From Limnohabitans sp. (GTDB taxonomy: Bacteria; Pseudomonadota; Gammaproteobacteria; Burkholderiales; Burkholderiaceae_C): a stretch of 64,000 nucleotides of DNA. The notes below the pieces were generated by a model. The model ran no database searches, was not told where the DNA came from, and saw only the letters and a list, made by a program, of their open reading frames with translations. Positions 1 through 26,735 of the stretch are shown one piece after another. The DNA lies in NCBI RefSeq assembly GCF_044373035.1, contig NZ_JBILQU010000004.1:2826-66825 (forward strand), given 5' to 3'. The position numbers and the translations under genes are program-made. The number at the start of each line of letters is the position of its first letter. Position 1 is the first letter of the stretch.

Positions 1-624
1 GGCAAATCCCAATCGGCGGTCATCGCTGCCATTGGCGCCAGAAGCATGCACAAGGTCTGTGTGATGCAAGGACATTTGACCCGCCATCACGGGCATGGGG
101 ACCCCAGTTTCATGGTCGAACCGATCACTGATCCCCTGCCCGCGCCGAATCATGTTCATGGGCTCAGGTTTGTCGTCGTGTTCAAAGGAGCCCCATTGGT
201 GACTGCCTGGCAGCGCCCTCATGCAACCGGCTTGTTCGGTGGCGTCTGACAATGCCACCCAGGCAGTGATGTGCAGATGAGGGTCAAGATAAAAGTAGGT
301 GCTGTCTTGGTGCCATCGTACGTAAGCCGGCGTGTGGGCCTCTTTCAAAAAAAGGGTCGAGTGGTAAACCAAAATGTCAGGGCCAATCACGTCTTCGACA
401 GCATCCAGTATGCGAGGGTGGTGGACCAACTGATCGGCCCAATCAAACAGAAGGTAAGACTTCGATTTTTCTGGAAAATCGATCGGTCCACCCCGAGCCT
501 GCTCCCATGCTTGGAGCTCTGAACGGTAGCGGGTCACTTCGGCTGGTGTGAGCACATCGATCGGAAACAAAAAACCATCCTGCTCGTAGCGCTGGACTTG
601 TTCGGAATTGAGTAAGCGTGTCAT
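1..624 (-). CDS. Phytanoyl-CoA dioxygenase (PhyH) family Fe(II)/2-oxoglutarate oxygenase; 3' end runs off the left window edge
   Basis: Absent from the ORF track because it is open to the window edge. Hand translation of the minus strand from ATG 624..622 gives MTRLLNSEQVQRYEQDGFLFPIDVLTPAEVTRYRSELQAWEQ...AYVRWHQDSTYFYLDPH...LPGSHQWG... This is a PhyH-type N-terminus plus the HxD of the facial triad. Its ATG overlaps the TGA of the upstream gene (ATGA at 621-624). Confidence 0.8.
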   Translation of the reverse strand, partial: MTRLLNSEQVQRYEQDGFLFPIDVLTPAEVTRYRSELQAWEQARGGPIDFPEKSKSYLLFDWADQLVHHPRILDAVEDVIGPDILVYHSTLFLKEAHTPAYVRWHQDSTYFYLDPHLHITAWVALSDATEQAGCMRALPGSHQWGSFEHDDKPEPMNMIRRGQGISDRFDHETGVPMPVMAGQMSLHHTDLVHASGANGSDDRRLGFA

Positions 625-1424
625 GTGGATCCTTTGACATGGGTTTGGGCCGCATCCAACATGCAGCCGAGCATGTTCAGGCGGTCGTGCATGGGCTTGG
701 GAAAGCCCACACGGCTGTGCGTCAACCTTAGCCCCAGGGCTGCTTCGGCCATTTTGTAGCTGAGTGGTCCAGGGTTGATGATGGGGACAGGCAATCGGGA
801 CTGCAGATACGCATGCGATTGGTGCATGGTGGTCGAGCCCAAAATGATCACCTCGGCACCATCATGCTCAATGGCCTTGAGCGCGGCAGCTTCCAGCAAA
901 GGAAAAACGTCTTCCTCTTTACCGGACAACAGATTTTGGTTATCAGGGGATACTTCGATGGCCCGAACAGAGGCACATTTGTGGTGGAGACCGAGCTCGT
1001 CGAGGGCTTTCTTGTAGAGCGGTTTCCATCGACTGGCCATGGTCAAAAACGAAAACCGGTCACCCAGCATGAGCGCTGTCAGCACCGATACCTTGCCGGG
1101 GCCAAACACCGGGATGTCCAGCACCGAGCGCAAAGCAGCCACCCCTGAGTCGCTCATGGTGTCGATGCAGACGGCGTCAAAACCTTCTGCCTGTGCGCGG
1201 CAACCGGCTTCGAAGTTGGCCACATCCGCCAAAACAAAATCGTGATGGCTGGCGTAATTGACGGGACCGGCTTTGACGGGTCGGTATTCAAAGTGGATGT
1301 GGGGCCCCAAGGACAAGCTGGCCAATTGCGCCTGTCGCAACAACAGGTTCTCTGCTGACATGGCGAACGGAACAATCACCAGAACCCGCCACGTAGGCTC
1401 GGGTGCTGCAGTCTCATTGACCAT
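621..1424 (-). CDS. Asp/Glu/hydantoin racemase family protein (hydantoin/allantoin-racemase-like)
   Basis: ORF 621..1442. Start placed at the second ATG (1424) because GGAG lies about 7 nt upstream. GFDAVCIDTMSDSGVAALRSVLDIPVFGPG and AEVIILGSTTMH...PVPIINPG resemble the two pseudo-symmetric halves of hydantoin racemases. Confidence 0.8.
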   Translation of the reverse strand: MVNETAAPEPTWRVLVIVPFAMSAENLLLRQAQLASLSLGPHIHFEYRPVKAGPVNYASHHDFVLADVANFEAGCRAQAEGFDAVCIDTMSDSGVAALRSVLDIPVFGPGKVSVLTALMLGDRFSFLTMASRWKPLYKKALDELGLHHKCASVRAIEVSPDNQNLLSGKEEDVFPLLEAAALKAIEHDGAEVIILGSTTMHQSHAYLQSRLPVPIINPGPLSYKMAEAALGLRLTHSRVGFPKPMHDRLNMLGCMLDAAQTHVKGST

Positions 1425-2094
1425 GGGGGTTCTCCAATTCATTCAAAACATGTTGGGTGCTGCTGACACGACCAAAGAGGCGTTGAAAATTGCGCAAAGT
1501 GACCAGGTGCAAATCTTCGTGCGTGGTGCCGCAAGCATCTTCAACCAGGGTCACCAGGTAACCTCGGTCGGCAGCTTCCCGAGCCGTCGTTTCGACACAC
1601 ATGTTGGTCGAGACGCCGGTGAGGTAAATTTGCTCGCACTGAAGTGCGCGCAGCAAGCTGTCGATGTTGGTCGATGCGAAAGCGCCAATGGTGGTTTTTC
1701 TCAGGACATGTTCACCTGACAAGGGTTTCAATTCATCCAAGATCTCGTGCTCGCGGCTGCCGACGAAGTTGCGAAACTCGACAAACAATTTGCGCATGTG
1801 CGGTGGCGCATCCAAGGCATCGGGATGGGCTGCGCCAATGGTGACATGCAAGATGGGTCGACCCAGGGCGCGAAAATGGTCTCTCAAGCGCAATGAATTG
1901 GGAACGACGAGGGATTCAATGCGGTCAAAACGGTAGTTGCCAATCGTTGAGCCTTCGGCTTGAAGTTTTCGCCCCAAAGCGCCATGGCGTGATCCCGTGG
2001 CGTATTGCAAGTCAATCATGACCAAGGCCGCCGAGCCCGGCTTGATCGGGCGATCGGGCATGTAGGCGCGGATGTAGTCGGTGGACGGGTTCAT
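1414..2094 (-). CDS. Isochorismatase-family cysteine hydrolase (amidase-like), copy 1
   Basis: ORF 1414..2193 trimmed to ATG 2094 (MNPSTDYIRAY...). Triad-like motifs are AALVMIDLQ (Asp), VLRKTTIGAF (Lys) and GVSTNMCVETTAREA (Cys). ATGA overlap with the upstream stop at 2091-2094. Confidence 0.85.
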   Translation of the reverse strand: MNPSTDYIRAYMPDRPIKPGSAALVMIDLQYATGSRHGALGRKLQAEGSTIGNYRFDRIESLVVPNSLRLRDHFRALGRPILHVTIGAAHPDALDAPPHMRKLFVEFRNFVGSREHEILDELKPLSGEHVLRKTTIGAFASTNIDSLLRALQCEQIYLTGVSTNMCVETTAREAADRGYLVTLVEDACGTTHEDLHLVTLRNFQRLFGRVSSTQHVLNELENPHGQ

Positions 2095-2993
2095 GGCTTG
2101 ATTCTTTCGGTCAATGGCGTTCGTGGAGGTTCTGCAAGCAGGACGGATTGTTCGCGGTAACTGTCCACGATTTGGCTGCCAGTGGCGCACCACACCCCGC
2201 TGTGTCCCAGGATGTAGGTCAGTGCACGGGCGAGGTGTTCAATGCGATGGGGTTGGCCCATGATGAACGGGTGGACGGCGATGTTCATCACACGTCCGCC
2301 CTCGGCATACAGGGTGTCAAATTCATCGCAGATTTTTTGTGCAAAAGCCTCGGCTTCCATGCCCCTACGCCAAGCGATGCTGTCGTTGATTTCCATGCTG
2401 TAAGGCAAGGACAGCAATGAACCACGGCGGACCCTGATGGGGGTGGGCTGATCGTCATGGTAGAGGTCGCACAGGTAGTCCATGCCCGACTCGGCCACCA
2501 AGTCGGGGGTCAGGAGCGTGTTCGATGCCGCAGGAGAAAACCAGCCACGCAGACTTTTTCCGGTGATTCGGCGGTGAATGATCTGACACGCTTCAATGGC
2601 GTCCCGTTCTTCTTGCTCGCTCATGCCCCAGTGGTAGCGGGTGTTGAACATGCCATGCGACATGAATTCCCAATGGCGCTTGAGCATGGCCTCGGCAATG
2701 TCGGGGTACATGTCCAAAACCGCCATGGACAGAGACACGGTGCAGGGCAAATTGAACCGGTCGAACACCTCCATCAATCGCCAAACGCCAACCCGGTTGC
2801 CATAGTCGCGCAGACCGTATCCAAGAATATCGGGGTGTGGAACCCTTGGCCATGGGTTTCGAACACGCACCTGTTCCGGCAAGTATTCGTAGTGCTCAAT
2901 GTTGGGCGCAACCCAAAGGGCCAGGCGAGCGCCTTCAGGCCATTGAAGGGCTGGACGAGTGGGGATGGCTGAATAGGCAATCCGATCCTGCAT
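2091..2993 (-). CDS. PuuE/allantoinase-type polysaccharide-deacetylase-family hydrolase, paralogue 1
   Basis: ORF 2091..3101. Start placed at ATG 2993 (GGAGG 5 nt upstream). Motifs: WPEGARLALWVAPNIEHYE, LRDYGNRVGVWRLMEVF, HWEFMSHGMFNTRY, AVHPFIMGQPHRIEHL, HSGVWCATGSQI. These are collinear with the PuuE pattern as I recall it (EYGSRAGVWRLL / GHEICSHGYRW / GLHCRLIGRPARM / HDKVWFARRE). Confidence 0.85.
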   Translation of the reverse strand: MQDRIAYSAIPTRPALQWPEGARLALWVAPNIEHYEYLPEQVRVRNPWPRVPHPDILGYGLRDYGNRVGVWRLMEVFDRFNLPCTVSLSMAVLDMYPDIAEAMLKRHWEFMSHGMFNTRYHWGMSEQEERDAIEACQIIHRRITGKSLRGWFSPAASNTLLTPDLVAESGMDYLCDLYHDDQPTPIRVRRGSLLSLPYSMEINDSIAWRRGMEAEAFAQKICDEFDTLYAEGGRVMNIAVHPFIMGQPHRIEHLARALTYILGHSGVWCATGSQIVDSYREQSVLLAEPPRTPLTERIKP

Positions 2994-3066
2994 GGCCACC
3001 TCCATGGCGTGTGCAGCCAATTCGCCAGAGTCCAGCATTGGGAGGTGCCCCGTCATTTGCGCATTC

Positions 3067-3630
3067 TCAGCGACGTTGGGCCTGGGTTTCAGCCAAATCA
3101 TTCCAGACGTCTTGGCGCTGGATCAAGCCGTCCACAATTTCAAAACGGTCAACGAAACGGATGCCCTCAAAAGGCGTGCCGTCCAGCCAGATGCCGTGCA
3201 AAGTGCCAAAGCAATAGACCACACAGGATTCATCGCCCCAGGATTCGTCAAATTTCTCATAGTTTTTGCCGACCTGTTGGTACCTGCCGTGGGCCCATGA
3301 CACCAACTCTTCGAGTTTGTGCATGACAGGACTTGCAGGAAATCGCATGCTGAAATCAGGTGTCAGCAGCAGCGCCGCATCCGCAAGCTGTCGGTTTTGC
3401 ATGCGCTGTAGAAAATCCCGCACCAGCGCACAAGCATCGACACGTGCAGCGCCGCCGCCACTGAACACACGACCATCGCGTTGGTAGGTGCTGGCTTGGT
3501 GAACAAAAACAGTCGTGCCCGCAGAAGAGGCCGCGATCACAGATCGGGCTGCCTGCGCTACGCGATTGACCAGGCGCTGCTCGGTTTCCGGGCTGTAGCC
3601 CGGCAGTAAGGTGATGGAGATGACGGGCAT
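3067..3630 (-). CDS. Fusion protein: N-terminal 4-oxalocrotonate tautomerase-family domain + C-terminal SnoaL/NTF2-like domain
   Basis: ORF 3067..3699 trimmed to ATG 3630 (GGAG 8 nt upstream), giving MPVISITLLPGYSPETEQRLVNRVAQAARSVI... This has Pro directly after Met and the beta-alpha-beta pattern of 4-OT. About 130 aa follow, ending ...GTPFEGIRFVDRFEIVDGLIQRQDVWNDLAE, which is typical of SnoaL-like folds. Confidence 0.7.
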   Translation of the reverse strand: MPVISITLLPGYSPETEQRLVNRVAQAARSVIAASSAGTTVFVHQASTYQRDGRVFSGGGAARVDACALVRDFLQRMQNRQLADAALLLTPDFSMRFPASPVMHKLEELVSWAHGRYQQVGKNYEKFDESWGDESCVVYCFGTLHGIWLDGTPFEGIRFVDRFEIVDGLIQRQDVWNDLAETQAQRR

Positions 3631-3655
3631 GGGTGCGCTCCAATGGCCAGAGGGT

Positions 3656-4600
3656 TCAGGTCGCAGACGAAGCTTGGGCTGCGCTGGTCTTCCATGCATC
3701 CAGGATGTCGTTGCCGGTGGCCGCCCAAACCCCAGGGTGACTCATGATGTGGGTCAGTGCCTCTTCCAGCGCCCTGATTCGGTAAGGTTGACCAATCACC
3801 CAAGGGTGCAGGGAAATGGCCATGACGCGACCGTTATCGCTGCTCGATTCACGGTAAAGCCCGTCGAATTGATCGATCAACTGGTCCCTGAAGTCGTCTT
3901 CGGTATGGTGGTTTTGAACCAGAATGGTGTGGTCGTCCATGTCAATCGGGTGCGGCATGGCCATCAGCTCACCTGCACGTGTGTGCATGGCATAGGGCAT
4001 GTCGTCATTGACCCAGTCGCAAACGTAGTCGAGACCGGCTTCCTTTAACAAGTCAAGCGTGTGGTGTGATTCTGATTTGGCAGGGGAAAGCCAGCCACGG
4101 ATGCGTTGACCGCTGATGCGCTGGAGCACATCCAGGGAGTGGGTGATCCACTGCCGCTCATCGGCTTCGGCGAGTCCACCATGGTGGATGTGGTCCATGT
4201 CCATGCCATTGGCGATGATTTCCCAGCCGCGTTGTAAACAAGACTGGATCAGCGACGGGTAGCGTTGGGCCACGGCGGCATTGATGGCAACCGAAGCGGG
4301 TATGGCATGTTTTTCCAAAGCTTGCATGATGCGAAAGATGCCAACCCGATTGCCGTAATCTCGCAAGGTGTAATGGCGAAAATCAGGATAGGCCGTTTGC
4401 ATCGCCCCTGGGGGCTTGAAGGGCAATCCTTTCATGTTGAGGGGAAACCACTCGAGAGCCGGTATCACCCAAAGTGCCAAACGAGCACCCTGGGGCCAAC
4501 GCACTGGGGGGCGTTGCGGCAACATGGACCAAGCGTACCGGTCATGGTCCATGCCATAACGACGCAAAGGGTAATCGAGGTAATCGTCGGGCAAACTCAT
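3656..4600 (-). CDS. PuuE/allantoinase-type polysaccharide-deacetylase-family protein, paralogue 2 (active-site His position is Asn)
   Basis: ORF 3656..4693 trimmed to ATG 4600 (MSLPDDYLDYPL...), which forms an ATGA overlap with the upstream stop (4597-4600). Motifs: WPQGARLALWVIPALEWF, LRDYGNRVGIFRIMQAL, GWEIIANGMDMDHIHH, SLHPWVIGQPYRIRAL, HPGVWAATGNDI. Confidence 0.85.
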   Translation of the reverse strand: MSLPDDYLDYPLRRYGMDHDRYAWSMLPQRPPVRWPQGARLALWVIPALEWFPLNMKGLPFKPPGAMQTAYPDFRHYTLRDYGNRVGIFRIMQALEKHAIPASVAINAAVAQRYPSLIQSCLQRGWEIIANGMDMDHIHHGGLAEADERQWITHSLDVLQRISGQRIRGWLSPAKSESHHTLDLLKEAGLDYVCDWVNDDMPYAMHTRAGELMAMPHPIDMDDHTILVQNHHTEDDFRDQLIDQFDGLYRESSSDNGRVMAISLHPWVIGQPYRIRALEEALTHIMSHPGVWAATGNDILDAWKTSAAQASSAT

Positions 4601-5511
4601 GCGGCTTCTCCCACGGTCTGTGCCGCCGCCGTGAATTCGGCGTGGTAATGCGTGTTGAAGTGGCACGCGATTTCCCTGCCAGTGGCCAGCCAAACCTTGT
4701 CATGGCCCGTGATGTAAGACAGGGCCTCTTCAAAGGCCGCCATCCGATAGGGTTGACCAATCAAATAGGGGTGAAGTGGTATGCACATCACCGTTCCCGA
4801 TTTTTCGCCCTCAGCATAGAGCCGGTCAAACTGGCGTTTGAGGATGTCTGCGTAGCGACGCGGTGAAACCAGATTGACGTTGTAGACGATGGTGTCGTTC
4901 ATTTCCAGCGAATAGGGGATGCTGGTCAATCGCCCCTGCTTGACTTTCACGGGGCCGGGTTGGTCATCGTGAAACAGGTCGCAAACATAGGTCAGACCCA
5001 TTTCAGCCACCAAGTCCATGGTTCTGTCGGTATAGGTCAGAGCGGGGGCCAGCCAACCGTCGAGTTTTTGGTCCGTGTGTTTTTTGATCGTGTCGATGGA
5101 ATCTTGGATGACGGCGCGCTCTTGCGCTTCGGTCATTCCCATGAGATAGCGGGTGTTGTATGTGCCGTGAGAATAAAACTCCCAACCATTTTCAGCACAA
5201 GCAGCAATCACCTCGGGGTGGTGTTCACACACGGCCACGTTGAGCGACACACTGCCACGCATGTTGCAGCGTTTCATGGCGTCGAGCATGCGCCAAAATC
5301 CCACGCGATTGCCGTAGTCGCGGTACGAGAAATTTTGAACGTCGGGTGAGGGGCGAGCCCATGGCGCACGAGCAGGATTGCGTGGTGGATCGAGCTCGTA
5401 GTATTCGATGTTGGGGGCGACCCAAAATGCCACTCGGGCACCACCGGGCCAGCTTATTTTGGGCCGCTGGTCGTAGGGCAAGTAGTCATAAAAACCTGGA
5501 TCTCTTTTCAC
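4597..5511 (-). CDS. PuuE/allantoinase-type polysaccharide-deacetylase-family hydrolase, paralogue 3
   Basis: ORF 4597..5511. GTG start with GGGAG 7 nt upstream and a GTGA overlap with the upstream stop (5508-5511). Motifs: WPGGARVAFWVAPNIEYYE, YRDYGNRVGFWRMLDAM, GWEFYSHGTYNTRY, PLHPYLIGQPYRMAAF, HDKVWLATGREI. Confidence 0.85.
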   Translation of the reverse strand: MKRDPGFYDYLPYDQRPKISWPGGARVAFWVAPNIEYYELDPPRNPARAPWARPSPDVQNFSYRDYGNRVGFWRMLDAMKRCNMRGSVSLNVAVCEHHPEVIAACAENGWEFYSHGTYNTRYLMGMTEAQERAVIQDSIDTIKKHTDQKLDGWLAPALTYTDRTMDLVAEMGLTYVCDLFHDDQPGPVKVKQGRLTSIPYSLEMNDTIVYNVNLVSPRRYADILKRQFDRLYAEGEKSGTVMCIPLHPYLIGQPYRMAAFEEALSYITGHDKVWLATGREIACHFNTHYHAEFTAAAQTVGEAA

Positions 5512-6194
5512 GCCCGTGCTCCCGCAGCTGGGGCCAATTGACGCAAGCCTTCCAGGGTTTCCTTGACCGAAATGACGTCCGCGTATTTCAAGGCCATGTC
5601 GTACAAGTTGGAAAAGTGAGGGGATTCATGTTTGTCGGCAACACACTCTTCCGGCACGATGGTGCGAAAACTGCGTTGCAGGCTGTCCACCACAGTGGCC
5701 CGAACACAACCAGAGGTCGAACCTCCTGTGACGACAACCGTGTCCACACCATGGAAGGTGAAGATCGAGCCCAGGTTGGTTTCGAAAAAAACCGACGCCA
5801 TTCGTTTGTTGATGATGATGTCGCGTTCGCGATCAATCTTCAGGCGGTCGTCAAACTCTGCACGGCGACTGCCAACCTTGATGTTTTGCAGGGAATCCGG
5901 AGTGTTGGAGCGGGTCCCCCAGACGCCGCAATCTTCGCCGGAAGGCATGTAGGCCACATAAGTCCATACCACAGGAAACCCTTTGGACCTGAATTCGGCA
6001 GCCAACTCATTGACATGGTCCAGTTGGTGAGGATCGGTTTCATAGGCGGTGGCAAATTCGCCAACGCATGTGTAGGCTTTTTGCAAATCGATGTTGATCA
6101 AGGCGGGCATGCGACCGAAACCAAAACGTTTGCGGGTCGGAGCGGCCTTGATGTCGGCGAAAAGCTGTCGAGCTGTCTTGTCGGAAGTTTGCAT
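5508..6194 (-). CDS. Isochorismatase-family cysteine hydrolase, copy 2 (N-carbamoylsarcosine amidase / maleamate amidohydrolase NicF-like)
   Basis: ORF 5508..6443 trimmed to ATG 6194 (MQTSDKTARQLF...). Motifs: FGFGRMPALINIDLQKAY (Asp), IINKRMASVFF (Lys), VVTGGSTSGCVRATVVD (Cys). Confidence 0.85.
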   Translation of the reverse strand: MQTSDKTARQLFADIKAAPTRKRFGFGRMPALINIDLQKAYTCVGEFATAYETDPHQLDHVNELAAEFRSKGFPVVWTYVAYMPSGEDCGVWGTRSNTPDSLQNIKVGSRRAEFDDRLKIDRERDIIINKRMASVFFETNLGSIFTFHGVDTVVVTGGSTSGCVRATVVDSLQRSFRTIVPEECVADKHESPHFSNLYDMALKYADVISVKETLEGLRQLAPAAGARA

Positions 6195-13265: not shown

Positions 13266-13269
13266 ACAC

Positions 13270-14040: not shown

Positions 14041-14047
14041 ATTGAAC

Positions 14048-14359: not shown

Positions 14360-15756
14360 TGCACGCCACAGTAAGACTGCTGAGTCGTCACCGTGTGGGA
14401 CATGAGCCCTTGAGAATTCTGGCCGCTTCGGGCCAGCTTGGATTTGGAATTCCGCAGGCGTCATTTGAACGCGGTATGGCCCGACAGCCGCATGTGGTTG
14501 GCTGTGACATGGGCTCCATCGATCCTGGCCCTTACTACCTGGGGTCAGGTGAAATGGCGGCGCCGATGACCATGGTCAAGCGTGATTTGGCGCTGGTTTT
14601 GACCGCCAGCCTGAATGCGGGTGTGCCATTGATCATCGGTTCTGCCGGAACGGCCGGTGCGCGACCTCACTTGGAGGCCACCGTGGCGGTGTTGCGCGAG
14701 ATCGCTTGCGAAAAAGGTTTGTCATTTCGACTCGTCACTGTGAAGAGTGATTTGCATGCGGAAATGGTCTTGACCAGCTTGAACAAGGGCGAGTTGGAGC
14801 CGATTGGACCGATGCCAGAGCCATCTGCAGATGATGTGATCAACTGCCAACACATTGTGGGTCAATGTGGCACAGAAACACTGGCGAGGGCGCTGGCACT
14901 TGACCCGGATGTTGTGCTCGCTGGGCGTGCGTGCGACACCGCCATTTTTTCAGTATTCCCGGAATTACTGGGTTATCCGGTGGGCTTGTCTTTGCACATG
15001 GCCAAAGTTATAGAGTGCACATCCTTGTGTTGCCAGCCCGGCGGACGTGATGCGATGCTGGCCACACTGGATGCGGATGGGTTCACGCTCGAAAGCATGA
15101 ATCCAGCGTGTCATGCCACGCCCGCTTCGGTTGCAGCGCATGCCTTGTACGAGCAAGCCAATCCCTACGAAGTCGAAGAGCCCGGAGGAACCTTGCGCTT
15201 GCACGGAGCGCGGTATGAAGCTGTGGATGCGCACCGAACCCGCGTCAGGGGTGCCGAGTTTGTGCCACGTGAAAACCCCACCTTGAAAATTGAAGGGGCT
15301 GCTTACGTCGGCAGCCGTGTGGTGTTGATCGCTGGCGTTGCCGATCCAGGTCTTTTGACTTGTTTGCCCGAAGCGCTTGCTGCCGTTGAGGAAAAGGTGC
15401 GCACCCTCTTGCCCGGCGATTGGCGTGTTGTGCCGCACATTTATGGGCAGGGTGCTGTTCGAACATTGCCGCCAGAGCAGTTCAGCAGCCATGAGGCCGG
15501 GTTGGTGATTGAGTTCCTTGCACATGATGCGGACATGGCCATGACTGTGGCGTCTGTTTTTAAACAAAATTTGTTGCATCACGCGTTTCCACAGCGGCTG
15601 ACGACAGCAGGCAATTTGGCGTTTTGTTTCACCCCCCCTGAACTGGCTGGACGCGAGGCCTATCGGTTTGTTCTCTACCATGTGATGCACAACGCCCCTT
15701 TGGATCAAATCTTTCAAGTCGAAGCCCAGTCCATTGCGCCAGCATGGATTCAATGA
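14359..15756 (+). CDS. DUF1446 / acyclic-terpene-utilisation AtuA-family protein
   Basis: ORF 14356..15756 with ATG 14359 sharing one base with the upstream TGA. ...LRILAASGQLGFGIP...VVGCDMGSIDPGPYYLGSG...PLIIGSAGTAG... is typical of DUF1446. Confidence 0.75.
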   Translation: MHATVRLLSRHRVGHEPLRILAASGQLGFGIPQASFERGMARQPHVVGCDMGSIDPGPYYLGSGEMAAPMTMVKRDLALVLTASLNAGVPLIIGSAGTAGARPHLEATVAVLREIACEKGLSFRLVTVKSDLHAEMVLTSLNKGELEPIGPMPEPSADDVINCQHIVGQCGTETLARALALDPDVVLAGRACDTAIFSVFPELLGYPVGLSLHMAKVIECTSLCCQPGGRDAMLATLDADGFTLESMNPACHATPASVAAHALYEQANPYEVEEPGGTLRLHGARYEAVDAHRTRVRGAEFVPRENPTLKIEGAAYVGSRVVLIAGVADPGLLTCLPEALAAVEEKVRTLLPGDWRVVPHIYGQGAVRTLPPEQFSSHEAGLVIEFLAHDADMAMTVASVFKQNLLHHAFPQRLTTAGNLAFCFTPPELAGREAYRFVLYHVMHNAPLDQIFQVEAQSIAPAWIQ

Positions 15757-15762
15757 GTTCCT

Positions 15763-16554
15763 ATGGTTACTTCTTTGCCTTTAACCAAATACCATCAGAT
15801 TTATCTGGTGTTGCGTGAACAACTGGACGAGGGGCGCTTCGCACTGGGTCTGCCGAGTGAGTTGGCGTTGACCCAACAGTTTGGCGTAGGTCGTGTGACG
15901 GTGCGCCGCGCTCTTGAACTTCTTGCAGAAGATGGTTTGATTGTGCGCGAGGCTGGGCGAGGCACGAGGCCCGCCACCCGCAAAGAACTGGGGGCCCGCC
16001 AGTCAAATGAGTTGACACTGGGACATCCCTCCACCAAATTGACGGGTCTGCTGAAAAACATCGTGAGTGTGAGTCGGGGCACCACCGTCAAAGTGCTGGA
16101 CTGGCGAGTGATTCAGGCTTCGGACAGTTTGGCCTTGACCTTGCAGGTGGCACCGGGTTCAAAGATACGCAAGGCAGCGCGTCGACGCAGCACGCAGGAG
16201 GGACCTGTATCGCACATCACCACCTATTGTCCGGAATCGATCGTCAAGGGCATAGTTCAGCGTGACTTGATACAAAAGCCCATTTTGCAATTGCTGGAAG
16301 AGTCAGGCATTGAACTGGGTCGTGCGATGCAAACAGTTTCAGCCAGGCAGGCAGATGCTCAAGTGGCGCAGGAGCTCGAGGTGGCTGTGGGTACGGCATT
16401 GTTGTCGGTTCGCCGCTTGGTTTTTGATGCCGCCGATCGCCCTGTCCTCTTGTTGCATGGCTTGTACCGTCCCGATCGCTACGAATACCAAATGGAGTTG
16501 TCGCAAGTGGGTGGCATTGACGCCCGCATTGTGGCCAAGGAAATCCGTGCCTGA
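15763..16554 (+). CDS. GntR-family transcriptional regulator, HutC/UTRA subfamily
   Basis: N-terminal winged HTH ...LPSELALTQQFGVGRVTVRRALELLAEDGLI..., plus a C-terminal part of about 150 aa of UTRA size. It starts 6 nt after the upstream stop and ends 23 nt before the next start. Confidence 0.85.
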   Translation: MVTSLPLTKYHQIYLVLREQLDEGRFALGLPSELALTQQFGVGRVTVRRALELLAEDGLIVREAGRGTRPATRKELGARQSNELTLGHPSTKLTGLLKNIVSVSRGTTVKVLDWRVIQASDSLALTLQVAPGSKIRKAARRRSTQEGPVSHITTYCPESIVKGIVQRDLIQKPILQLLEESGIELGRAMQTVSARQADAQVAQELEVAVGTALLSVRRLVFDAADRPVLLLHGLYRPDRYEYQMELSQVGGIDARIVAKEIRA

Positions 16555-16577
16555 AAACCTCCTATTACCCCAATCAC

Positions 16578-17873
16578 ATGGACAGTGACATGACAACGCA
16601 AACGCCCATCCCCCAAACCTTGGCGCAAAAGTTGATTGCTCAAGCGTCGTGTCGATCTCACGTGGCCGTGGGAGACATCATCAGCTGTAAAGTGGACTTG
16701 GCCATGTTTCACGACTCATCGGGACCCAGGCGGCTGAAACCGATGCTGGAAGAGCTGGGGGCCGAAATTTGGGACAAATCACGGGTGGTTCTTGTCATGG
16801 ACCATTACGTGCCCGAGCAAGATGAGGACTCGCGCCGCATCATACGCATAGCCCGTGAGTGGGCCCTGGATCAGAAGCTGCCGCATGTGTATGACAGCCA
16901 GGGTATTTGCCATGTCGTGTTGCCACAAAAGGGACATTTGCGTCCGGGCATGTTCTGTGTCGGCGGAGATTCACACTCCCCGACCGGCGGAGCATTTGGC
17001 ACTTACATGTTCGGTATTGGGAGCACCGAAATGCTGGGTGTTGTGGTGACAGGTGAGATATGGGTCCGTGTTCCGCAGACGATGCGCATGTGGTGGGATG
17101 GTCGACTGCCCGTGGGTTTGACGGCCAAAGACATGATGCTCCACATGATTGGTCAATTTGGCATGAATGGCGGAGACTATCAAGCGGTTGAATTTTGTGG
17201 TCCAGCGGTGCAGGCCTTGTCCATGCAAGAGCGCATGACGATGTCCAACATGAGCGCTGAAATGGGTGCACAAGTGGGGTTAATAGCACCCGATGAAGTG
17301 ACGCAAGATTGGCTTGTGAAAAACGGCGTGTCAAAAGATGACATCCACCTTGGGCATTGGCGCACCGATGACGAAGCCTATGCCCTGGTCCACCGATTCA
17401 ATGCTGCCGATCTGGCGCCCCAGGTGGCCGCACCCCACAGTCCAGCCAACACCCATGCAGTCAACGAATTCCAAAACGTCGCAGTACAGGTGGCCTACAT
17501 CGGTGCGTGTACGGGGGCCAAGCTCGACGATTTGCGTGCGGCAGCCCAAATTTTCAAAGGCAAGCGGGTTGCTCAGGGTGTGCGGCTGATGGTGGCACCC
17601 GCCAGTTTGGCGGACCAAAGCCAAGCAGAAAATGAAGGGGTGATGTCGGTGTTGCGCGATGCCGGAGCCGAAGTCCTGCCCACAGCCTGTGGGGCTTGCT
17701 CAGGCTATGGTGGCAGTATTCCGGATGGTGCCAATGTGATTGCCACAACGGCTCGGAATTTCAAGGGGCGCATGGGTTCGGCCACGGCGCAGGTTTATCT
17801 TGCTTCGCCCTATACCGTAGCGGCATCCGCTTTGCGCGGTTTCATCAGCGATCCAAGAGAGGCATTGGCATGA
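16578..17873 (+). CDS. Aconitase-family dehydratase large subunit (LeuC / homoaconitase-type, short archaeal-like form)
   Basis: GGDSHSPTGGAFG; Fe-S ligand regions AYIGACTGAK and PTACGACSG; TTARNFKGRMG. 431 aa. Confidence 0.85.
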   Translation: MDSDMTTQTPIPQTLAQKLIAQASCRSHVAVGDIISCKVDLAMFHDSSGPRRLKPMLEELGAEIWDKSRVVLVMDHYVPEQDEDSRRIIRIAREWALDQKLPHVYDSQGICHVVLPQKGHLRPGMFCVGGDSHSPTGGAFGTYMFGIGSTEMLGVVVTGEIWVRVPQTMRMWWDGRLPVGLTAKDMMLHMIGQFGMNGGDYQAVEFCGPAVQALSMQERMTMSNMSAEMGAQVGLIAPDEVTQDWLVKNGVSKDDIHLGHWRTDDEAYALVHRFNAADLAPQVAAPHSPANTHAVNEFQNVAVQVAYIGACTGAKLDDLRAAAQIFKGKRVAQGVRLMVAPASLADQSQAENEGVMSVLRDAGAEVLPTACGACSGYGGSIPDGANVIATTARNFKGRMGSATAQVYLASPYTVAASALRGFISDPREALA

Positions 17874-18361
17874 TCACATCCCACCGAGTCTGGATTTTGG
17901 GTGCGGACATCGACACCGATGCACTGGCACCTGGGGCTTACATGAAGTTGGGGATTGAGGGTATTGCACCCCATTGCCTTGAAGCGGTTCGATCTGAATT
18001 TGCAAGAGAGGCCCTAAGGGGCGATGTGATTGTGGCTGGTCCAAATTTTGGCATTGGTTCTTCGCGTGAGCAGGCTGCTGGCGCACTCGTTCATCTGGGC
18101 ATCAGGGCCGTCATTGCACCTTCTTTCAGTGGACTTTTCTTTCGCAATGCGTTCAATTTGGGGTTGCTTCTTTTGACCTGCCGTGACACATCGGCTTTCA
18201 AGGATTTGCAGTCCCTCGGGCTGGATCTGGAGACCTTGACTCTCACGGCCCCTGATGGATCGCGCATCTCATGCGACCCCATTCCTGATTTTCTTCTGAA
18301 CATGGTCGAGGCCGGAGGCCTCATGAATCAACTTCGTCAGCGCATCAAAAGGCCATCATGA
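17870..18361 (+). CDS. Aconitase-family dehydratase small subunit (LeuD-like)
   Basis: ORF 17696..18361 trimmed to ATG 17870 (ATGA overlap with the large-subunit stop). It carries GPNFGIGSSREQAA, the LeuD-type GxNFGxGSSRE motif. Confidence 0.85.
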   Translation: MITSHRVWILGADIDTDALAPGAYMKLGIEGIAPHCLEAVRSEFAREALRGDVIVAGPNFGIGSSREQAAGALVHLGIRAVIAPSFSGLFFRNAFNLGLLLLTCRDTSAFKDLQSLGLDLETLTLTAPDGSRISCDPIPDFLLNMVEAGGLMNQLRQRIKRPS

Positions 18362-19806
18362 ACATGCAGACCACTGCCCCCAATTCTTCTCCAACCGTGG
18401 TTCGGTCTGCGACCATGCCAGAAGAAACCGCGCATGTTCCCGTGTTGATCGTGGGGTCGGGTGCTTGTGGGCTGACCACAGCCATCCGACTCAGGATGGC
18501 GGGTGTTGAATGCGTCTTGCTGGAGCGTGATGCCGTGCCCAGCGGGTCAACCGCCTTGTCATCAGGTTTTGTTCCGGCGGCACAAACCCGTTTGCAAAAG
18601 TCCTTGGGCATTGAGGACTCCCATGCGGCATTTGCCCAGGATGTGGTGGCCAAATCCCATGGACAGGCAGCACCCCATTTGGTGCAAGCCTACACCCAAG
18701 CGGTGTCTCAGGCCATTGATGCCCTCGAGGAAAAGGGAATCAAATTTGAAGTCCTGGATGGATTTTTGTTTCCAGGTCATCGTGTGCGCAGAATGCATGC
18801 CGTCCCCGAGCACACTGGCCTTGCCCTCATGGCGGCAATGGAGCGGACTGCCAGTCAGGCAGGCGCTGATACATTGACTGAGGCCTTGGTTCGTGAAATC
18901 TGGATGGATGACAACGACAGGGTCTTGGGCGTGGGGTGCATGCGTCCTGATGGTTCGATGGAGCGACTCGCCTGTGATGTTTTGGTGCTGGCTTGCAATG
19001 GGTATGGCGGCAATGCCGCGATGGTCAACGAGATGTTGCCCGCCATGCGCAATGCGGCGTTCGGCGGTCACGTCGGCAACGATGGCAGCGCGATTGCCTG
19101 GGGCAAAGCCATGGGTGCGCGTTTGGCCGACTTGGGTGGTTACCAAGGCCACGGCTCTTGGGTCACGCCGCAAGGCGCGCTCATGACCTGGGCGATCATC
19201 ATGGAGGGTGGGGTTCAGATCAATGGCGAAGGCCGCCGCTTCCATGATGAGACACAAGGCTATTCCGAGGCCGCCGTGAACGTGCTGGATCAGCCTGGAA
19301 ATATCGCCTGGAATGTCTTTGATGGCCCCTTGCTGGACATGGCCCGAAAATTTCCAGATTTTGTCGAAGCAGAAAAAGCAGGGGCTGTTCGCAAGGCCAA
19401 CACCATCCTGGAACTGGCCGCCACAATGGGCTGCAGTGTTGAAACACTGCAAGCGACTTTGGACCAAGTGGGACCTCAGCAAGCCGATGGTTTGGGCAGA
19501 GTATTCAAACGCACATTGCAAGCGCCTTATTACGCTGTCAAGGTCACAGGCGCGCTGTTTCACACACAGGGTGGGCTGGACATTGATGCGACCTGTCGTG
19601 TATTGCGTGAGGACGGACGACCGCTCCCCAATTTGTTGGCTGCCGGTGGCGCGGCACGCGGTGTTTCTGGAAATGAGGTGTGGGGCTATTTGTCGGGCAA
19701 TGGATTGCTCAGCGCCATTGGTGGTGGCTGGATCGCAGCTGGCACGGCGGCCAATCAACTCAACCCCGAATATCAGCCGAATCGATCGAAAGGAACCATT
19801 CGATGA
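18358..19806 (+). CDS. FAD-binding oxidoreductase of the fumarate reductase/succinate dehydrogenase flavoprotein-like (FrdA/KstD/TcuA-like) type
   Basis: VPVLIVGSGACGLTTA (GxGxxG) ...ERDAVPSGSTALSSG..., and C-terminal LLAAGGAARGVSGN. ATGA overlap at 18358-18361. Confidence 0.8.
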   Translation: MNMQTTAPNSSPTVVRSATMPEETAHVPVLIVGSGACGLTTAIRLRMAGVECVLLERDAVPSGSTALSSGFVPAAQTRLQKSLGIEDSHAAFAQDVVAKSHGQAAPHLVQAYTQAVSQAIDALEEKGIKFEVLDGFLFPGHRVRRMHAVPEHTGLALMAAMERTASQAGADTLTEALVREIWMDDNDRVLGVGCMRPDGSMERLACDVLVLACNGYGGNAAMVNEMLPAMRNAAFGGHVGNDGSAIAWGKAMGARLADLGGYQGHGSWVTPQGALMTWAIIMEGGVQINGEGRRFHDETQGYSEAAVNVLDQPGNIAWNVFDGPLLDMARKFPDFVEAEKAGAVRKANTILELAATMGCSVETLQATLDQVGPQQADGLGRVFKRTLQAPYYAVKVTGALFHTQGGLDIDATCRVLREDGRPLPNLLAAGGAARGVSGNEVWGYLSGNGLLSAIGGGWIAAGTAANQLNPEYQPNRSKGTIR

Positions 19807-20699
19807 ACCATAACCTCCACGACAAGCAGGCCTCTTTGGCGAATCGCCTGCAACAACCCGCCGCCTTGCTGGCCCCCGGTGTGTACGACGCACTCACCGC
19901 GCTGGTGGCGCAGCAGGCGGGTTTTGAAGCGCTGTATTTGTCCGGCGCATCGATTGCCTACACGCGCTTGGGCCGATCAGACATCGGCCTGACGACGGCC
20001 ACGGAAGTGGCGCAGACCTTGGCGCACATCACCGACCGGGTGAACATTCCCGTCATCGTGGACGCTGACACCGGATTTGGCAACGCGCTCAACACCCAGC
20101 GCACCGTGCGTGATTTTGAACGCGCCGGGGCCGCGATGATCCAGATCGAAGACCAGACTTTCCCCAAACGCTGCGGTCATTTGGACGGCAAAGGCGTGGT
20201 GCCGGTGGCCGAGATGCAAGGCAAACTGCGCGCCGCACTCGATGCCCGGCACGATAAAAACACCTTGATCCTGGCGCGCACCGATGCGGTCGCCGTGGAA
20301 GGCCTGGACGCCGCGCTGGAGCGGGCCGAGCGCTACTTGGAATGCGGCGTCGATGCCTTGTTCATCGAAGCCCTGCGCTCGGACGAGCAGATGAACCGTG
20401 CTTGCGCACAGTTTGCCAAGCGTGTGCCACTGCTGGCCAACATGGTCGAAGGCGGCAAGACGCCGGTGCAAAGCGCGGCCGAGTTGGGCGAACGGGGCTT
20501 CAAAATCGTGATCTTCCCCGGCGGCACGGCGCGGGCGGTGCTGCATACGCTGCAAGGCTATTACGCCAGCTTGCACATGCACCAGACCACAAGCCCGTGG
20601 CAGGGCCAGATGCTGGACTTTGATGGCCTGAACGCGGTGATTCAAACCCCGCAATTGCTGGCGCTGGGGCAGCGTTATGAAAGCGGTGACAAGGCATGA
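19803..20699 (+). CDS. Isocitrate lyase/PEP mutase superfamily enzyme (2-methylisocitrate lyase / dimethylmalate lyase / carboxy-PEP mutase-like)
   Basis: ORF 19680..20699 trimmed to ATG 19803 (ATGA overlap). Motifs: PGVYDALTALVAQQAGFEALYLSG, DADTGFG, IEDQTFPKRCGH (the family K[KR]CGH motif). Confidence 0.85.
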   Translation: MNHNLHDKQASLANRLQQPAALLAPGVYDALTALVAQQAGFEALYLSGASIAYTRLGRSDIGLTTATEVAQTLAHITDRVNIPVIVDADTGFGNALNTQRTVRDFERAGAAMIQIEDQTFPKRCGHLDGKGVVPVAEMQGKLRAALDARHDKNTLILARTDAVAVEGLDAALERAERYLECGVDALFIEALRSDEQMNRACAQFAKRVPLLANMVEGGKTPVQSAAELGERGFKIVIFPGGTARAVLHTLQGYYASLHMHQTTSPWQGQMLDFDGLNAVIQTPQLLALGQRYESGDKA

Positions 20700-21193
20700 C
20701 GCCAAACATTGTTTTGCGCGGCCTGCAAGTGGGTGACATTGGCTGGGTGGCGCATCGGCAAGGCATGTTGTATGCCCAGGAATACGGCTGGGATGGCACC
20801 TTCGAGGCCTTGGTGGCCGAGATCGCCGCGCAGTTTGTGAAAAAATTTGACCCGGAAAAAGAAAACGCCTGGATCGCCGAGTGTGAGGGCCGAGTGGTGG
20901 GTTCGGCGTTTGTGGTCAAGGTCTCTGACACCGAGGCGAAGCTGCGCTTGCTGTACGTGGAGCCCGAGATGCGCGGCACCGGCCTGGGACGGCGCTTGAC
21001 CCAAGAGTGCATTGCTTTTGCCAAAGCCCGGGGCTATCCCAAATTGACTTTGTGGACCAACGACATCCTGCATGCGGCCAGGCACATTTACCAAAACGCG
21101 GGTTTTGTGTTGTTGTCCGAAGAGCCCCACCAGTCGTTTGGACATGATCTGGTGGGTCAGTACTGGGCGCTGGATTTGGAAAATGAAGACTAA
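20696..21193 (+). CDS. GNAT-family N-acetyltransferase
   Basis: 165 aa. ...LLYVEPEMRGTGLGRRLTQECIAFAK... is the acetyl-CoA-binding motif. ATGA overlap at 20696-20699. It resembles the GNAT half of MarR-GNAT fusion proteins but has no HTH. Confidence 0.85.
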   Translation: MTPNIVLRGLQVGDIGWVAHRQGMLYAQEYGWDGTFEALVAEIAAQFVKKFDPEKENAWIAECEGRVVGSAFVVKVSDTEAKLRLLYVEPEMRGTGLGRRLTQECIAFAKARGYPKLTLWTNDILHAARHIYQNAGFVLLSEEPHQSFGHDLVGQYWALDLENED

Positions 21194-26732: not shown

Positions 26733-26735
26733 GTT

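Follow-up and report, generated by a model that had tools for sequence, protein, structure and literature searches.

A two-armed, layered gene cluster in Limnohabitans with a candidate role in the breakdown of five-membered cyclic imides or acyl-ureas

The first 21,193 nucleotides of a 64,000-nucleotide stretch of Limnohabitans sp. DNA (contig NZ_JBILQU010000004.1, positions 2,826 to 66,825; hereafter the window) hold a cluster of 24 genes, in which a 104-bp gap (8574-8677) separates 10 leftward genes (from 8573) from 14 rightward genes (from 8678). This two-armed layout, proposed in a first-pass annotation, was borne out by the open reading frame listing, which was cross-checked by independent gene calls on metagenome contigs with identical genes. 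The cluster recurs in related genomes as a core with optional layers, and comparison of its predicted proteins inclines us, with modest confidence, to regard it as a repressor-controlled catabolic island whose substrate would have a five-membered ring, either a cyclic imide or an acyl-urea, that bears alkyl or carboxyalkyl groups. The features of the cluster, from left to right, are as follows.

1-624, minus strand: PhyH, with 208 N-terminal amino acids inside the window, cut by the window edge.
621-1424, minus strand: racemase-superfamily protein (Pfam PF01177).
1414-2094, minus strand: Iso1, isochorismatase-like cysteine hydrolase (Pfam PF00857).
2091-3038, minus strand: PuuE1, PuuE-like (CE4-fold) paralogue (Pfam PF01522; TIGR03212 sub-threshold).
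3067-3630, minus strand: 4-OT::SnoaL fusion (SnoaL_2, TIGR00013).
3656-4600, minus strand: PuuE2, PuuE-like paralogue (Pfam PF01522; TIGR03212 sub-threshold).
4597-5511, minus strand: PuuE3, PuuE-like paralogue (Pfam PF01522; PDB 1Z7A/3CL6).
5508-6284, minus strand: Iso2, isochorismatase-like cysteine hydrolase (PDB matches 4L07/4L08).
6292-6313, in the PrpD-Iso2 gap: degenerate operator palindrome with 3 mismatches.
6332-7696, minus strand: MmgE/PrpD-family protein (Pfam PF03972 and PF19305).
7689-8573, minus strand: PuuE4, divergent PuuE-like paralogue and first gene of the minus arm (TIGR03212 weak; PDB 3CL6).
8574-8677, both arms: divergent control region, with a promoter at 8588-8616 (plus strand) and a palindrome at 8624-8647.
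8678-9895, plus strand: LivJ-type binding protein of the Peripla_BP_6 family (Pfam PF13458, 5e-44).
9988-10857, plus strand: LivH (Pfam BPD_transp_2).
10854-11828, plus strand: LivM (Pfam BPD_transp_2).
11825-12571, plus strand: LivG (Pfam ABC_tran).
12564-13265, plus strand: LivF (Pfam ABC_tran).
13270-14040, plus strand: SDR (Pfam adh_short_C2, 3e-58).
14018-14359, plus strand: DUF4387 protein, presumed CmlB-like small subunit (Pfam PF14330, 2e-28).
14356-15756 (start called at 14359 or 14410), plus strand: DUF1446/AtuA family protein, CmlA homologue (PDB 9ERQ/9EVF).
15763-16554, plus strand: GntR/HutC regulator with a UTRA domain (Pfam PF00392 and PF07702).
16578-17873, plus strand: LeuC-like [4Fe-4S] hydro-lyase subunit (NF001614, TIGR01343).
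17870-18361, plus strand: LeuD-like [4Fe-4S] hydro-lyase subunit (TIGR02087).
18358-19806, plus strand: FrdA-like soluble FAD flavoprotein (fumarate-reductase / flavocytochrome-c / TcuA family).
19803-20699, plus strand: ICL/PEP-mutase-superfamily C-C lyase, PrpB-like (TIGR02317 and PDB matches).
20696-21193, plus strand: GNAT acetyltransferase (Pfam GNAT models), overlapping the lyase gene.

All of the family names in the first-pass annotation were upheld by Pfam and NCBIfam, PuuE4 by way of a weak TIGR03212 match and PDB 3CL6. Neighbouring genes in the arms frequently overlap by 4-11 bp, and terminator-like sites within the arms show no excess over expectation. The minus arm had been described as continuing beyond the window, as is indeed seen on longer contigs, where PhyH reaches 279 amino acids and is followed by a 129-amino-acid SnoaL_4 protein and then by a convergent AMP-binding gene that ends the arm. 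A search of the cluster for riboswitches and RNA genes found none. The G+C content is 0.52-0.58 in window positions 1-20000 as against 0.59-0.65 in the 18 kb to the right (20000-38000), and the lower value in the cluster may hint at horizontal acquisition.

Species-representative genomes were scanned with an alignment of the PrpD-like protein, and a tblastn synteny matrix was built over the 80 best loci. The scan returned 387 PrpD-like relatives, with a top match of 100% identity in a metagenome-assembled genome of Limnohabitans sp. Rim8, and the metagenome collection has the protein in 121 blocks. Across the 80 top-ranked loci, in Burkholderiales, the same genes lie side by side at about 50-90% amino-acid identity, the genera being Limnohabitans, Polaromonas, Rhodoferax, Rubrivivax, Variovorax, Hydrogenophaga, Ottowia, Lautropia, Caballeronia, and Chitinasiproducens. 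Proteins 78-88% identical to PuuE3 are also encoded in Paraburkholderia kururiensis, a Burkholderia plantarii plasmid, Caballeronia hypogeia, Actimicrobium, and a Rhodanobacter metagenome-assembled genome. One Rhodanobacter carries the cluster in addition to the roughly 80 Burkholderiales loci.

Presence and absence were counted in the 31 PrpD-anchored loci that span the whole region. The PrpD-like protein, Iso2, PuuE3, PuuE2, the racemase homologue, GntR, and LeuC were each found in all 31. PuuE4, PuuE1, and Iso1 occur together in 24 loci, 23 of which also carry DUF1446 and DUF4387, and 7 loci have none of these five genes. Iso1 is gained and lost together with PuuE1 and PuuE4, DUF1446 co-varies with the same three genes, and DUF4387 always accompanies DUF1446. 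The 4-OT::SnoaL gene is present in about two thirds of the loci, the SDR in most of them, and PhyH varies among related loci. LivJHMGF is syntenic in most loci, with a LivJ-like protein that is 71-89% identical across them.

The smallest set, found in P. kururiensis and on the B. plantarii plasmid, consists of ICL-FrdA-LeuD-LeuC-GntR on one side and Iso2-PuuE3-PuuE2-MFS transporter on the other; Rhodanobacter has the same minimal set minus FrdA, which is also missing from the Lautropia version. The PrpD-like protein and the racemase homologue are absent from the smallest clusters, and an MFS transporter stands there instead of LivJHMGF. Iso2 is present in every related cluster, and the GntR/UTRA protein is the sole regulator kept in all cluster versions. 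These results indicate that the cluster is layered, with a 7-8-gene core and optional layers, and is not one indivisible 24-gene pathway. The irreducible core comprises a transporter, the Iso2-PuuE3-PuuE2 trio, GntR, LeuCD, the ICL-family lyase, and usually FrdA. The second layer is formed by the PrpD-like protein, the racemase homologue, and the 4-OT::SnoaL fusion (4-OT::NTF2), which belong to families known for isomerase-type chemistry. The accessory layer consists of PuuE4, PuuE1, and Iso1 with DUF1446/DUF4387; PhyH/SnoaL_4 and the SDR co-occur with it and vary independently. The six hydrolases form two parallel trios, each of two PuuE-like proteins and one isochorismatase-like protein. Of the single 24-gene unit first envisaged, the co-conservation of the two arms stood, and its reading as one pathway gave way to this core with optional layers.

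Compared with the window, most related genomes have the Iso2-PuuE3-PuuE2 block and the PuuE1-Iso1-racemase-PhyH block inverted and exchanged in position (e.g., loci L024, L025, and L031-L046, and L090 at 11383-18213), and the intervening 4-OT::SnoaL gene keeps its orientation despite the inversion of the flanking blocks. Because the blocks are inverted elsewhere, the window, with its one long minus arm, shows only one of several arrangements. Among the loci long enough to include ICL, none outside Limnohabitans showed a GNAT gene next to it. Its inclusion in the cluster was therefore not borne out: GNAT, unconserved outside Limnohabitans, was rejected as a pathway member and is probably a lineage-specific passenger outside the conserved system.

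The control region contains a sigma-70-like promoter, TTGACA-17-CATAGT, at 8588-8616 on the plus strand, which matches at 10 of 12 positions; it ranks first among such sites in 20 kb and is the only strong promoter-like one. Just downstream of its -10 hexamer lies a perfect palindrome, AATTGTTCT-N6-AGAACAATT, at 8624-8647. The core motif of this palindrome, TGTTC-N8-GAACA, is kept in the equivalent gap of most related loci, in which the flanking sequence differs. In 1.2 Mb of related loci, 73 copies of the motif were counted against 0.4 expected, all of them located either between LivJ and PuuE4/PrpD or directly upstream of Iso2; 56 copies lie in LivJ/PuuE4, LivJ/PrpD, or LivJ/? gaps, and perfect copies stand upstream of Iso2 in 13 related loci. 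The inverted Iso2 block of related genomes has its own perfect operator copy. In the window, palindrome sites number 2 against 0.09 expected, and the copy at 6292-6313 has 3 mismatches from ATTGTTCT-N6-AGAACAAT. These comparisons strongly suggest that the genes marked by the motif would form one regulon.

The regulator encoded in the plus arm carries an N-terminal GntR helix-turn-helix (PF00392) and a C-terminal UTRA domain (PF07702), which fits the GntR/HutC repressors. Most likely, this protein would repress all of the promoters through the operator until the substrate or an intermediate binds to the UTRA domain. The conserved operator and the GntR/UTRA protein together offer a ready biosensor or reporter handle.

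The possibility that the genes are chance neighbours, or several unrelated operons, was weighed against these data. The cluster is modular and rearranged between genomes, and its modules can be found apart: the carbon module (LeuCD, FrdA, and ICL) occurs without the trio in Variovorax sp. PDNC026, and the trio occurs without the carbon module on a Comamonas endophytica plasmid. However, the partners remain adjacent over many genera despite the inversions, one operator motif marks the LivJ, PuuE4/PrpD, and Iso2 gaps and nowhere else in the 1.2 Mb, and stop and start codons overlap within each arm. The synteny across about 80 genomes and the shared operator leave chance association with next to no probability and uphold the co-conservation of the genes on which the first-pass annotation had depended.

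For the PuuE-like proteins, homology to solved PuuE-type NodB-fold proteins places them in the PuuE/CE4-fold superfamily. PF01522 is matched by PuuE1, PuuE2, and PuuE3, and PuuE4 has no Pfam match; in the PDB, PuuE3 matches 1Z7A at 1.4e-33 and the PuuE allantoinase 3CL6 at 7.7e-30, and PuuE4 matches 3CL6 at 1.2e-13. Identity to PuuE3 is 44% for PuuE1 and 28% for PuuE4. PuuE3 is the most conserved protein of the cluster, with 62% of its residues invariant in 45 orthologues. PuuE2 is divergent: an alignment of the four paralogues and of orthologues shows a conserved DMDHxHH where the paralogues have SHGxxNTRY. PuuE2 always lies directly downstream of PuuE3, with a 4-bp overlap in the window. The PuuE-like proteins are cytoplasmic and lack signal peptides. 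Enzymes of the PuuE fold are known as cyclic imidases as well as allantoinases (PMC9304392; PMC11424739).

None of the four reaches the PuuE equivalog model TIGR03212 (cut-off 424.6 bits), the scores being 145.9 for PuuE1, 137.2 for PuuE2, 143.3 for PuuE3, and 61.2 for PuuE4. These scores bear on the use of purines or allantoin, for which the PuuE paralogues would be redundant allantoinases. The PuuE fold is present, and Joint Genome Institute (JGI) pipelines tag some orthologues as 'allantoinase' or 'allantoin racemase'. However, equivalog scores of 61-146 bits fall far short of 424.6; no uricase, HIU hydrolase, OHCU decarboxylase, allantoicase, or ureidoglycolate enzyme is found across the conserved cluster; the racemase homologue lacks the cysteines; and the carbon module would be superfluous. 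Genes for the urate-to-allantoin steps or for allantoate degradation are missing from both the window cluster and the related loci, in agreement with the earlier judgement that this is not the purine pathway, and we regard allantoin use as extremely unlikely.

For the isochorismatase-like proteins, the positions of the Asp-Lys-Cys triad, assigned by eye, are kept in both Iso1 (MIDLQ, LRKTT, and TNMCVETT) and Iso2 (NIDLQ, INKRM, and TSGCVRAT). The two proteins score 84 and 35 bits with the BiuH model (cut-off 370) and 71 and 35 bits with the RutB model (cut-off 378), so that neither qualifies as an equivalog. The best PDB matches of Iso1 are 6AZO/5BK6, a 'putative amidase', at 3e-19, followed by 6XIX ('cysteine hydrolase', which we take to be the triuret hydrolase TrtA), the biuret hydrolase 6XJM, and RutB. 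Iso2 matches 4L07/4L08 at 4e-32, the N-carbamoylsarcosine amidohydrolases 26ST at 2.5e-28 and 1NBA at 5e-27, and 3OT4/3UAO at 9e-19; we take 4L07/4L08 to be Ami, the Pseudomonas putida S16 enzyme that hydrolyses maleamate, and 3OT4/3UAO is presumably NicF. Maleamate and N-carbamoylsarcosine share the skeleton H2N-CO-X-Y-COO-, which is that obtained by opening a five-membered imide or hydantoin. Because the two best-characterised relatives of Iso2 (with 4L07 taken to be Ami) act on such isosteric four-atom amic acids, a five-membered ring is the suggested substrate.

These Iso2 matches could also be read in terms of a lower pyridine pathway, in which N-formylmaleamate, made elsewhere from 2,5-dihydroxypyridine in the breakdown of nicotinate, nicotine, or picolinate, would be converted to maleamate and then to maleate. 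A CE4-type enzyme would be the deformylase, Iso2 would deamidate maleamate, and the racemase homologue would isomerise maleate. The top PDB matches of Iso2 are those presumed to be Ami and NicF, and the Asp/Glu racemase superfamily is established as including maleate isomerase. However, no ring-cleavage dioxygenase, molybdenum hydroxylase, or monooxygenase is present in any cluster version, maleate isomerase requires a Cys nucleophile where the homologue has Thr/Ser, and maleate has no need of LeuCD, FrdA, and the lyase. In addition, the presence of dedicated importers implies that the cell takes in the very compound that is hydrolysed. This pathway is therefore very unlikely.

Natural variants of the cluster were recorded at three further loci. 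On the megaplasmid of Variovorax sp. PDNC026 (locus L094, NZ_CP070344.1, 5972-20812), the genes are GntR, LivJHMGF, TctC, LeuC, LeuD, HyuB, HyuA, an isochorismatase-family amidase, FrdA, and ICL. Its carbon module (LeuCD, FrdA, and ICL) is 61-79% identical to that of the window, no PuuE-like genes are present, and the amidase is 29% identical to Iso2. HyuAB and the amidase look like a non-orthologous ring-opening module on the same carbon module. Their replacement of the PuuE pair and Iso2 supports a scheme in which ring opening and deamidation would feed LeuCD, FrdA, and the lyase.

The Comamonas endophytica plasmid (locus L009, NZ_CP106882.1, 17974-25987) carries the Iso2-PuuE3-PuuE2 trio at 74-85% amino-acid and 75% nucleotide identity, together with an alpha/beta hydrolase, an acyl-CoA dehydrogenase, an AMP-binding (CoA) ligase, an amidohydrolase, and a TTT binding protein, and with an adjacent IclR gene. 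This arrangement suggests that the trio may be a portable C-N hydrolysis unit. On a Burkholderiaceae chromosome, an Opp-type importer and a 675-amino-acid Old-Yellow-Enzyme-like reductase stand ahead of PrpD-Iso2-PuuE3-PuuE2-4OT-racemase. A search of plasmids for near-identical DNA returned fragments only.

For the carbon module, the LeuC-like protein scores 520.9 bits with NF001614 (cut-off 385) and 411.4 bits with TIGR01343 hacA_fam (cut-off 385.7), and the LeuD-like protein scores 144.4 bits with the LeuD/DmdB family model TIGR02087 (cut-off 108.95). The latter carries the GSSRE motif and a recognition loop, PGAYMKLG, with a conserved Lys, as expected of a hydro-lyase of this family. In the methanogen homoaconitase, the residue at that loop position is Arg, which binds the distal carboxylate. 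What the GSSRE motif does, and how the recognition loop contributes to specificity, has been described (PMC7308503).

The FrdA-like protein matches the flavocytochrome c3 fumarate reductase at 6e-44 and urocanate reductase at 3e-36 and has no haem domain; it scores 131 bits with the TcuA model NF006130 (cut-off 369) and fits fumarate reductases far better than NadB. The ICL-family lyase scores 289.4 bits with the prpB model TIGR02317, below its cut-off of 354.4, and thus does not qualify as a PrpB equivalog; in the PDB it matches methylisocitrate lyases at about 1e-54, the petal death protein at 3e-52, and 2,3-dimethylmalate lyase at 2e-46. Its KRCGH motif, which starts at residue 122 within a stretch invariant in 9 orthologues, places it in the lyase branch. 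For each of the four carbon-module enzymes, the characterised relatives have C6-C7 tricarboxylates or branched dicarboxylates as substrates. Since these relatives use tricarballylate, (homo)aconitate, methylisocitrate, or methylcitrate, and since the LeuD loop carries Lys, a tricarboxylate-like intermediate is suggested.

The DUF1446 protein matches PDB 9ERQ/9EVF, 'AtuA family protein | Citramalate lyase, subunit A (cmlA)', with an E-value of 1.5e-90 in an alignment that spans residues 19-448 of 466. This near-full-length homology to CmlA, with a DUF4387 gene directly upstream and the pair conserved, points to a CmlAB-type enzyme. The match to CmlA suggests that the cluster may encode two C-C lyases, the second going with the accessory trio. 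Cml, the Raoultella enzyme, has been used as a lyase that cleaves citramalate directly into pyruvate and acetate (bioRxiv 10.64898/2026.01.16.699985) and is the only one for which this activity is known; a DUF1446 gene lies beside methylaspartate-pathway genes in enterobacteria (PMC4682846).

The racemase homologue belongs to its fold family, with a PF01177 match at 8e-31 (107.9 bits, cut-off 31) and the hydantoin racemase 3QVK/3QVJ as the best PDB match (3e-15). However, Thr89 and Ser197 replace both catalytic Cys residues: the two-cysteine motifs ACFGDPG and LGCxGM are missing, and DTMSDSG and LGSTTMH are invariant in 57-58 orthologues. In an exhaustive search, which gave 99 racemase-homologue representatives at E <1e-30, relatives of 30-60% identity share D[ST]xSDSG and LGSTTMH, and the canonical Cys motifs are confined to relatives of about 33% identity or below. 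The earlier label of hydantoin-racemase-like thus holds for the fold and not for the catalytic identity. A two-thiol racemase or maleate isomerase was rejected as the function, both catalytic cysteines being missing. Some members of the Cys-less clade are tandem duplications of about 500 amino acids (e.g., P0361, P0374, and P0388, within the range P0361-P0510). In several sources, orthologues bear the label 'hydrogenase expression protein HupH' or 'allantoin racemase', apparently in error.

For the other enzymes of the arms, the PrpD-like protein, of dehydratase, decarboxylase, or epimerase type, carries both PF03972 and PF19305 and has the IDS (iminodisuccinate) epimerase as its best PDB match (5e-23), followed by IRG1/cis-aconitate decarboxylase. 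In the 4-OT::SnoaL fusion, TIGR00013 matches residues 24-68 of the longer open reading frame, and the best PDB entries are 9MUA/9MUP, 'Tautomerase' (186 amino acids), at 7e-42. The fusion protein starts MPVISITLL, so that Pro1 is present, and the first three residues are invariant in 34 orthologues. PhyH matches PF05721 of the Fe(II)/2-oxoglutarate dioxygenase family at 3e-37 and has an HQD start of the facial triad, which suggests a hydroxylase-type rather than a halogenase-type enzyme. The N-terminus of the LivJ-like protein resembles a twin-arginine signal, and this protein scores far below the cut-offs of the NCBIfam LivJ and UrtA models. The SDR has only generic subfamily matches in NCBIfam.

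Several of these observations fit a hydantoin or ureide route. In such a route, the PuuE-like enzymes would open a 5-substituted hydantoin or acyl-urea, Iso2 would be an N-carbamoyl-amino-acid amidase, and the resulting amino polycarboxylate would lose its nitrogen before LeuCD and the lyase, for example with the FrdA-like protein as an aspartate-oxidase-type enzyme. The nearest characterised relative of PuuE3 is the allantoinase PuuE, Iso2 matches N-carbamoylsarcosine amidase at 2.5e-28 and 5e-27, Iso1 resembles ureide-type amidases (biuret hydrolase, 6XIX, and RutB), and the nearest solved relatives of the racemase homologue are hydantoin and allantoin racemases. In addition, the PDNC026 carbon module holds an ATP-dependent HyuAB with an isochorismatase-family amidase, a pairing that parallels the route from N-methylhydantoin to N-carbamoylsarcosine. 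However, the racemase homologue has neither catalytic cysteine, and the amino group would have no enzyme in the minimal cluster, which lacks an aminotransferase, an ammonia-lyase, and any clear amino-acid oxidase. The FrdA-like protein scores much higher against fumarate reductases than against NadB and is missing entirely from the Rhodanobacter version, and an amino-acid product would leave LeuCD and the lyase without an obvious substrate. We consider this route, the main alternative, rather unlikely.

For the cyclic-imide or acyl-urea reading that we prefer, we infer a small ring of the succinimide, maleimide, or hydantoin type and the following order of steps. The LivJHMGF-type ABC importer, or the MFS transporter in the smallest versions, would take up the compound, and the cytoplasmic PuuE3 and PuuE2, possibly paired, would open the ring hydrolytically. 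Iso2 would then deamidate the H2N-CO-X-Y-COO- acid, giving ammonia and a substituted succinate- or maleate-type polycarboxylate. The FrdA/TcuA-like flavoprotein would desaturate this acid where required, the LeuCD-like iron-sulfur hydro-lyase would hydrate it, and the PrpB-like lyase would split the 2-hydroxy acid into pyruvate or glyoxylate and a carboxylic acid. The layer of the PrpD-like protein, the Cys-less racemase homologue, and 4-OT::NTF2 would probably channel isomers into this core route. PuuE4, PuuE1, and Iso1 with the CmlAB-like lyase, and possibly PhyH, would probably convert a related hydroxylated ring to a citramalate-like acid and thence to pyruvate and acetate. The logic of ring opening, deamidation, and hydration followed by retro-aldol cleavage, already put forward in the first-pass annotation, draws support from the relatives of Iso2, from the KRCGH motif of the lyase, and from the HyuAB variant in PDNC026.

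Several points weigh against this assignment. PuuE3 matches the imidase-like HpPgdA (3QBU) at 1.9e-12, more weakly than the allantoinase PuuE (about 1e-30), and a PuuE-like sequence taken alone does not separate an imide from a hydantoin, a lactam, or a linear amide as the substrate. Three core hydrolases are one too many for an imide unless PuuE3 and PuuE2 form one enzyme. The GntR/HutC protein is presumed to be the repressor that acts at the candidate operator TGTTC-N8-GAACA, a link between protein and site that is itself an assumption, and a search for the motif in the minimal clusters of Burkholderiaceae and Rhodanobacter gave no match. The FrdA-like protein may work in the reductive direction. 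Finally, the roles given to the PrpD-like, racemase-like, 4-OT::NTF2, SDR, and PhyH proteins are guesses from family chemistry.

A more specific proposal, which we offer as a speculative and improbable one, is that the cluster may be the missing bacterial route for the monopyrrolic end products of tetrapyrrole (chlorophyll, haem, or phycobilin) photo-oxidation. The candidate compounds would be hematinic acid, methyl-ethyl- and methyl-vinyl-maleimide, ethylidene-methyl-succinimide (from phycobilins), and the lactam-amide 'BOX' compounds. Hematinic acid, once hydrolysed and deamidated, would become 2-methyl-cis-homoaconitate, which would suit a homoaconitase-like LeuCD with a basic residue, and the PrpB-like lyase would then yield pyruvate and glutarate. 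Differing ring substituents would account for the paralogous trios, the tautomerase/isomerase layer, an ene-reductase-type flavoprotein, and the second pyruvate-forming lyase. The carriers include algae-associated lake bacterioplankton (Limnohabitans, Polaromonas, and Rhodoferax) and plant-associated Burkholderiaceae, and maleimides and hematinic acid have been reported from senescent leaves and lake sediments (PMC7318184). If true, this proposal would bear on the fate of chlorophyll and haem nitrogen, a long-open question.

Whichever compound is consumed, it is probably common in fresh water and soil, since most carriers are abundant lake bacteria. Knowledge of the substrate would give a function to four orphan PuuE-fold enzymes, to the Cys-less racemase branch, and to the fused 4-OT::NTF2 tautomerase, and it would add a second biological context for the CmlAB lyase and a new route from ring nitrogen to ammonia. 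Cultured carriers include Limnohabitans sp. Rim8, Variovorax humicola, Paraburkholderia kururiensis, Burkholderia plantarii, Ottowia, Caballeronia, and Chitinasiproducens.

The surroundings of the cluster are of mixed character. To the left of the window, past the AMP-binding gene and a DUF2889 gene, a VbhA-like gene is followed by a Fic-domain gene (loci L001/L003, 20591-21354), and the two are likely a toxin-antitoxin pair. To the right, directly after GNAT, three convergent genes at 21190-23457 encode a 234-309-amino-acid protein without a Pfam match, a glutathione S-transferase (21903-22685), and a 213-230-amino-acid protein without a Pfam match. A second candidate cyclic-amide operon lies at 25737-34979, 5-13 kb to the right of the cluster. 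It comprises an asparaginase (25737-26732), an FAA-hydrolase family protein (26736-27443), TctC (27813-28784), hydantoinase/oxoprolinase subunits B (28781-30454) and A (30451-32637), a class-V aminotransferase with a KYNU_C domain (32618-33865), and a divergent LysR gene (33954-34979). Its HyuAB is merely 31-35% identical to the HyuAB of the PDNC026 cluster version. A tRNA-Met (CAT) at 27648-27724, the sole RNA gene found by ARAGORN and Rfam in the 64 kb, lies between the asparaginase/FAA-hydrolase genes and the TctC-HyuBA genes. Further to the right, NusG, H-NS, globin, and Smr genes are located at about 37.7-41 kb, and a full aa3-type cytochrome c oxidase and assembly cluster (COX2, COX1 at 47013-48629, CtaG, COX3, SURF1, CtaA, CtaB, and SCO1) occupies about 45760-54325, an ordinary chromosomal context.

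With regard to known systems, the first-pass annotation had stated that the gene combination matches no described pathway, and this view is strengthened here: the NCBIfam equivalog models for PuuE, BiuH, RutB, PrpD, PrpB, and TcuA are all matched below threshold, and a full-text search of the literature found no paper describing this gene set. The purine/allantoin, Rut, biuret/cyanuric acid, nicotinate, methylcitrate, and tricarballylate pathways were each rejected, because the equivalog scores lie far below the cut-offs and the partner genes are absent from all loci. In the literature searched, the combination of genes, the operator, the layering, and the wide distribution are undescribed.

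The individual steps have clear parallels. The PuuE allantoinase (3CL6 of Pseudomonas fluorescens; PA1517, 1Z7A) has the same fold, with detectable similarity in all four paralogues, and the cyclic imidases of the PuuE/CE4 fold, namely CIH of P. putida, BpIH of Burkholderia, and HxnM of Aspergillus, offer a second comparison. In Aspergillus, the imidase HxnM is likewise succeeded by an amidase, HxnN (PMC9304392). Unlike these systems, the present cluster has four paralogues in two pairs, and their partners are tricarboxylate-type and not purine or nicotinate enzymes. The creatinine route, with a HyuAB N-methylhydantoinase/oxoprolinase and N-carbamoylsarcosine amidase, follows the same logic of ring opening and then deamidation, whereas the window cluster has ATP-independent enzymes of the PuuE fold instead of the ATP-dependent HyuAB. 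Ami/NicF and N-carbamoylsarcosine amidase, the best solved relatives of Iso2, deamidate the acid from ring opening in their own pathways; however, the similarity of Iso2 to them is at the family level only (1e-19 to 1e-32), and the cluster has no link to NicX/NicD or creatinine genes.

For the carbon steps, DmdAB and Dml in the nicotinate fermentation of Eubacterium barkeri likewise use a LeuCD-type hydro-lyase and then a KRCGH lyase of the ICL superfamily that gives pyruvate and an acid. The methylcitrate cycle, with its PrpD, aconitase, and PrpB steps, also shares a PrpD-family protein with the cluster; however, the PrpD model scores 34 against a cut-off of 950, and no propionyl-CoA or methylcitrate synthase gene is present. 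In contrast to both systems, the cluster joins these enzymes to C-N hydrolases and an importer. TcuA and the soluble fumarate and urocanate reductases are the best relatives of the FrdA-like protein, itself a haem-less FAD_binding_2 enzyme, whereas the cluster has no TcuB partner, and FrdA is dispensable in some versions. The pairing of DUF1446 with DUF4387 is like that in CmlAB, the CoA-independent citramalate lyase of Raoultella planticola (9ERQ/9EVF), whereas here the pair travels with PuuE4, PuuE1, and Iso1 instead of the methylaspartate genes of enterobacteria. Overall, the parts of the cluster belong to known families, and its logic resembles the chemistry of cyclic-imide and creatinine breakdown and of nicotinate fermentation.

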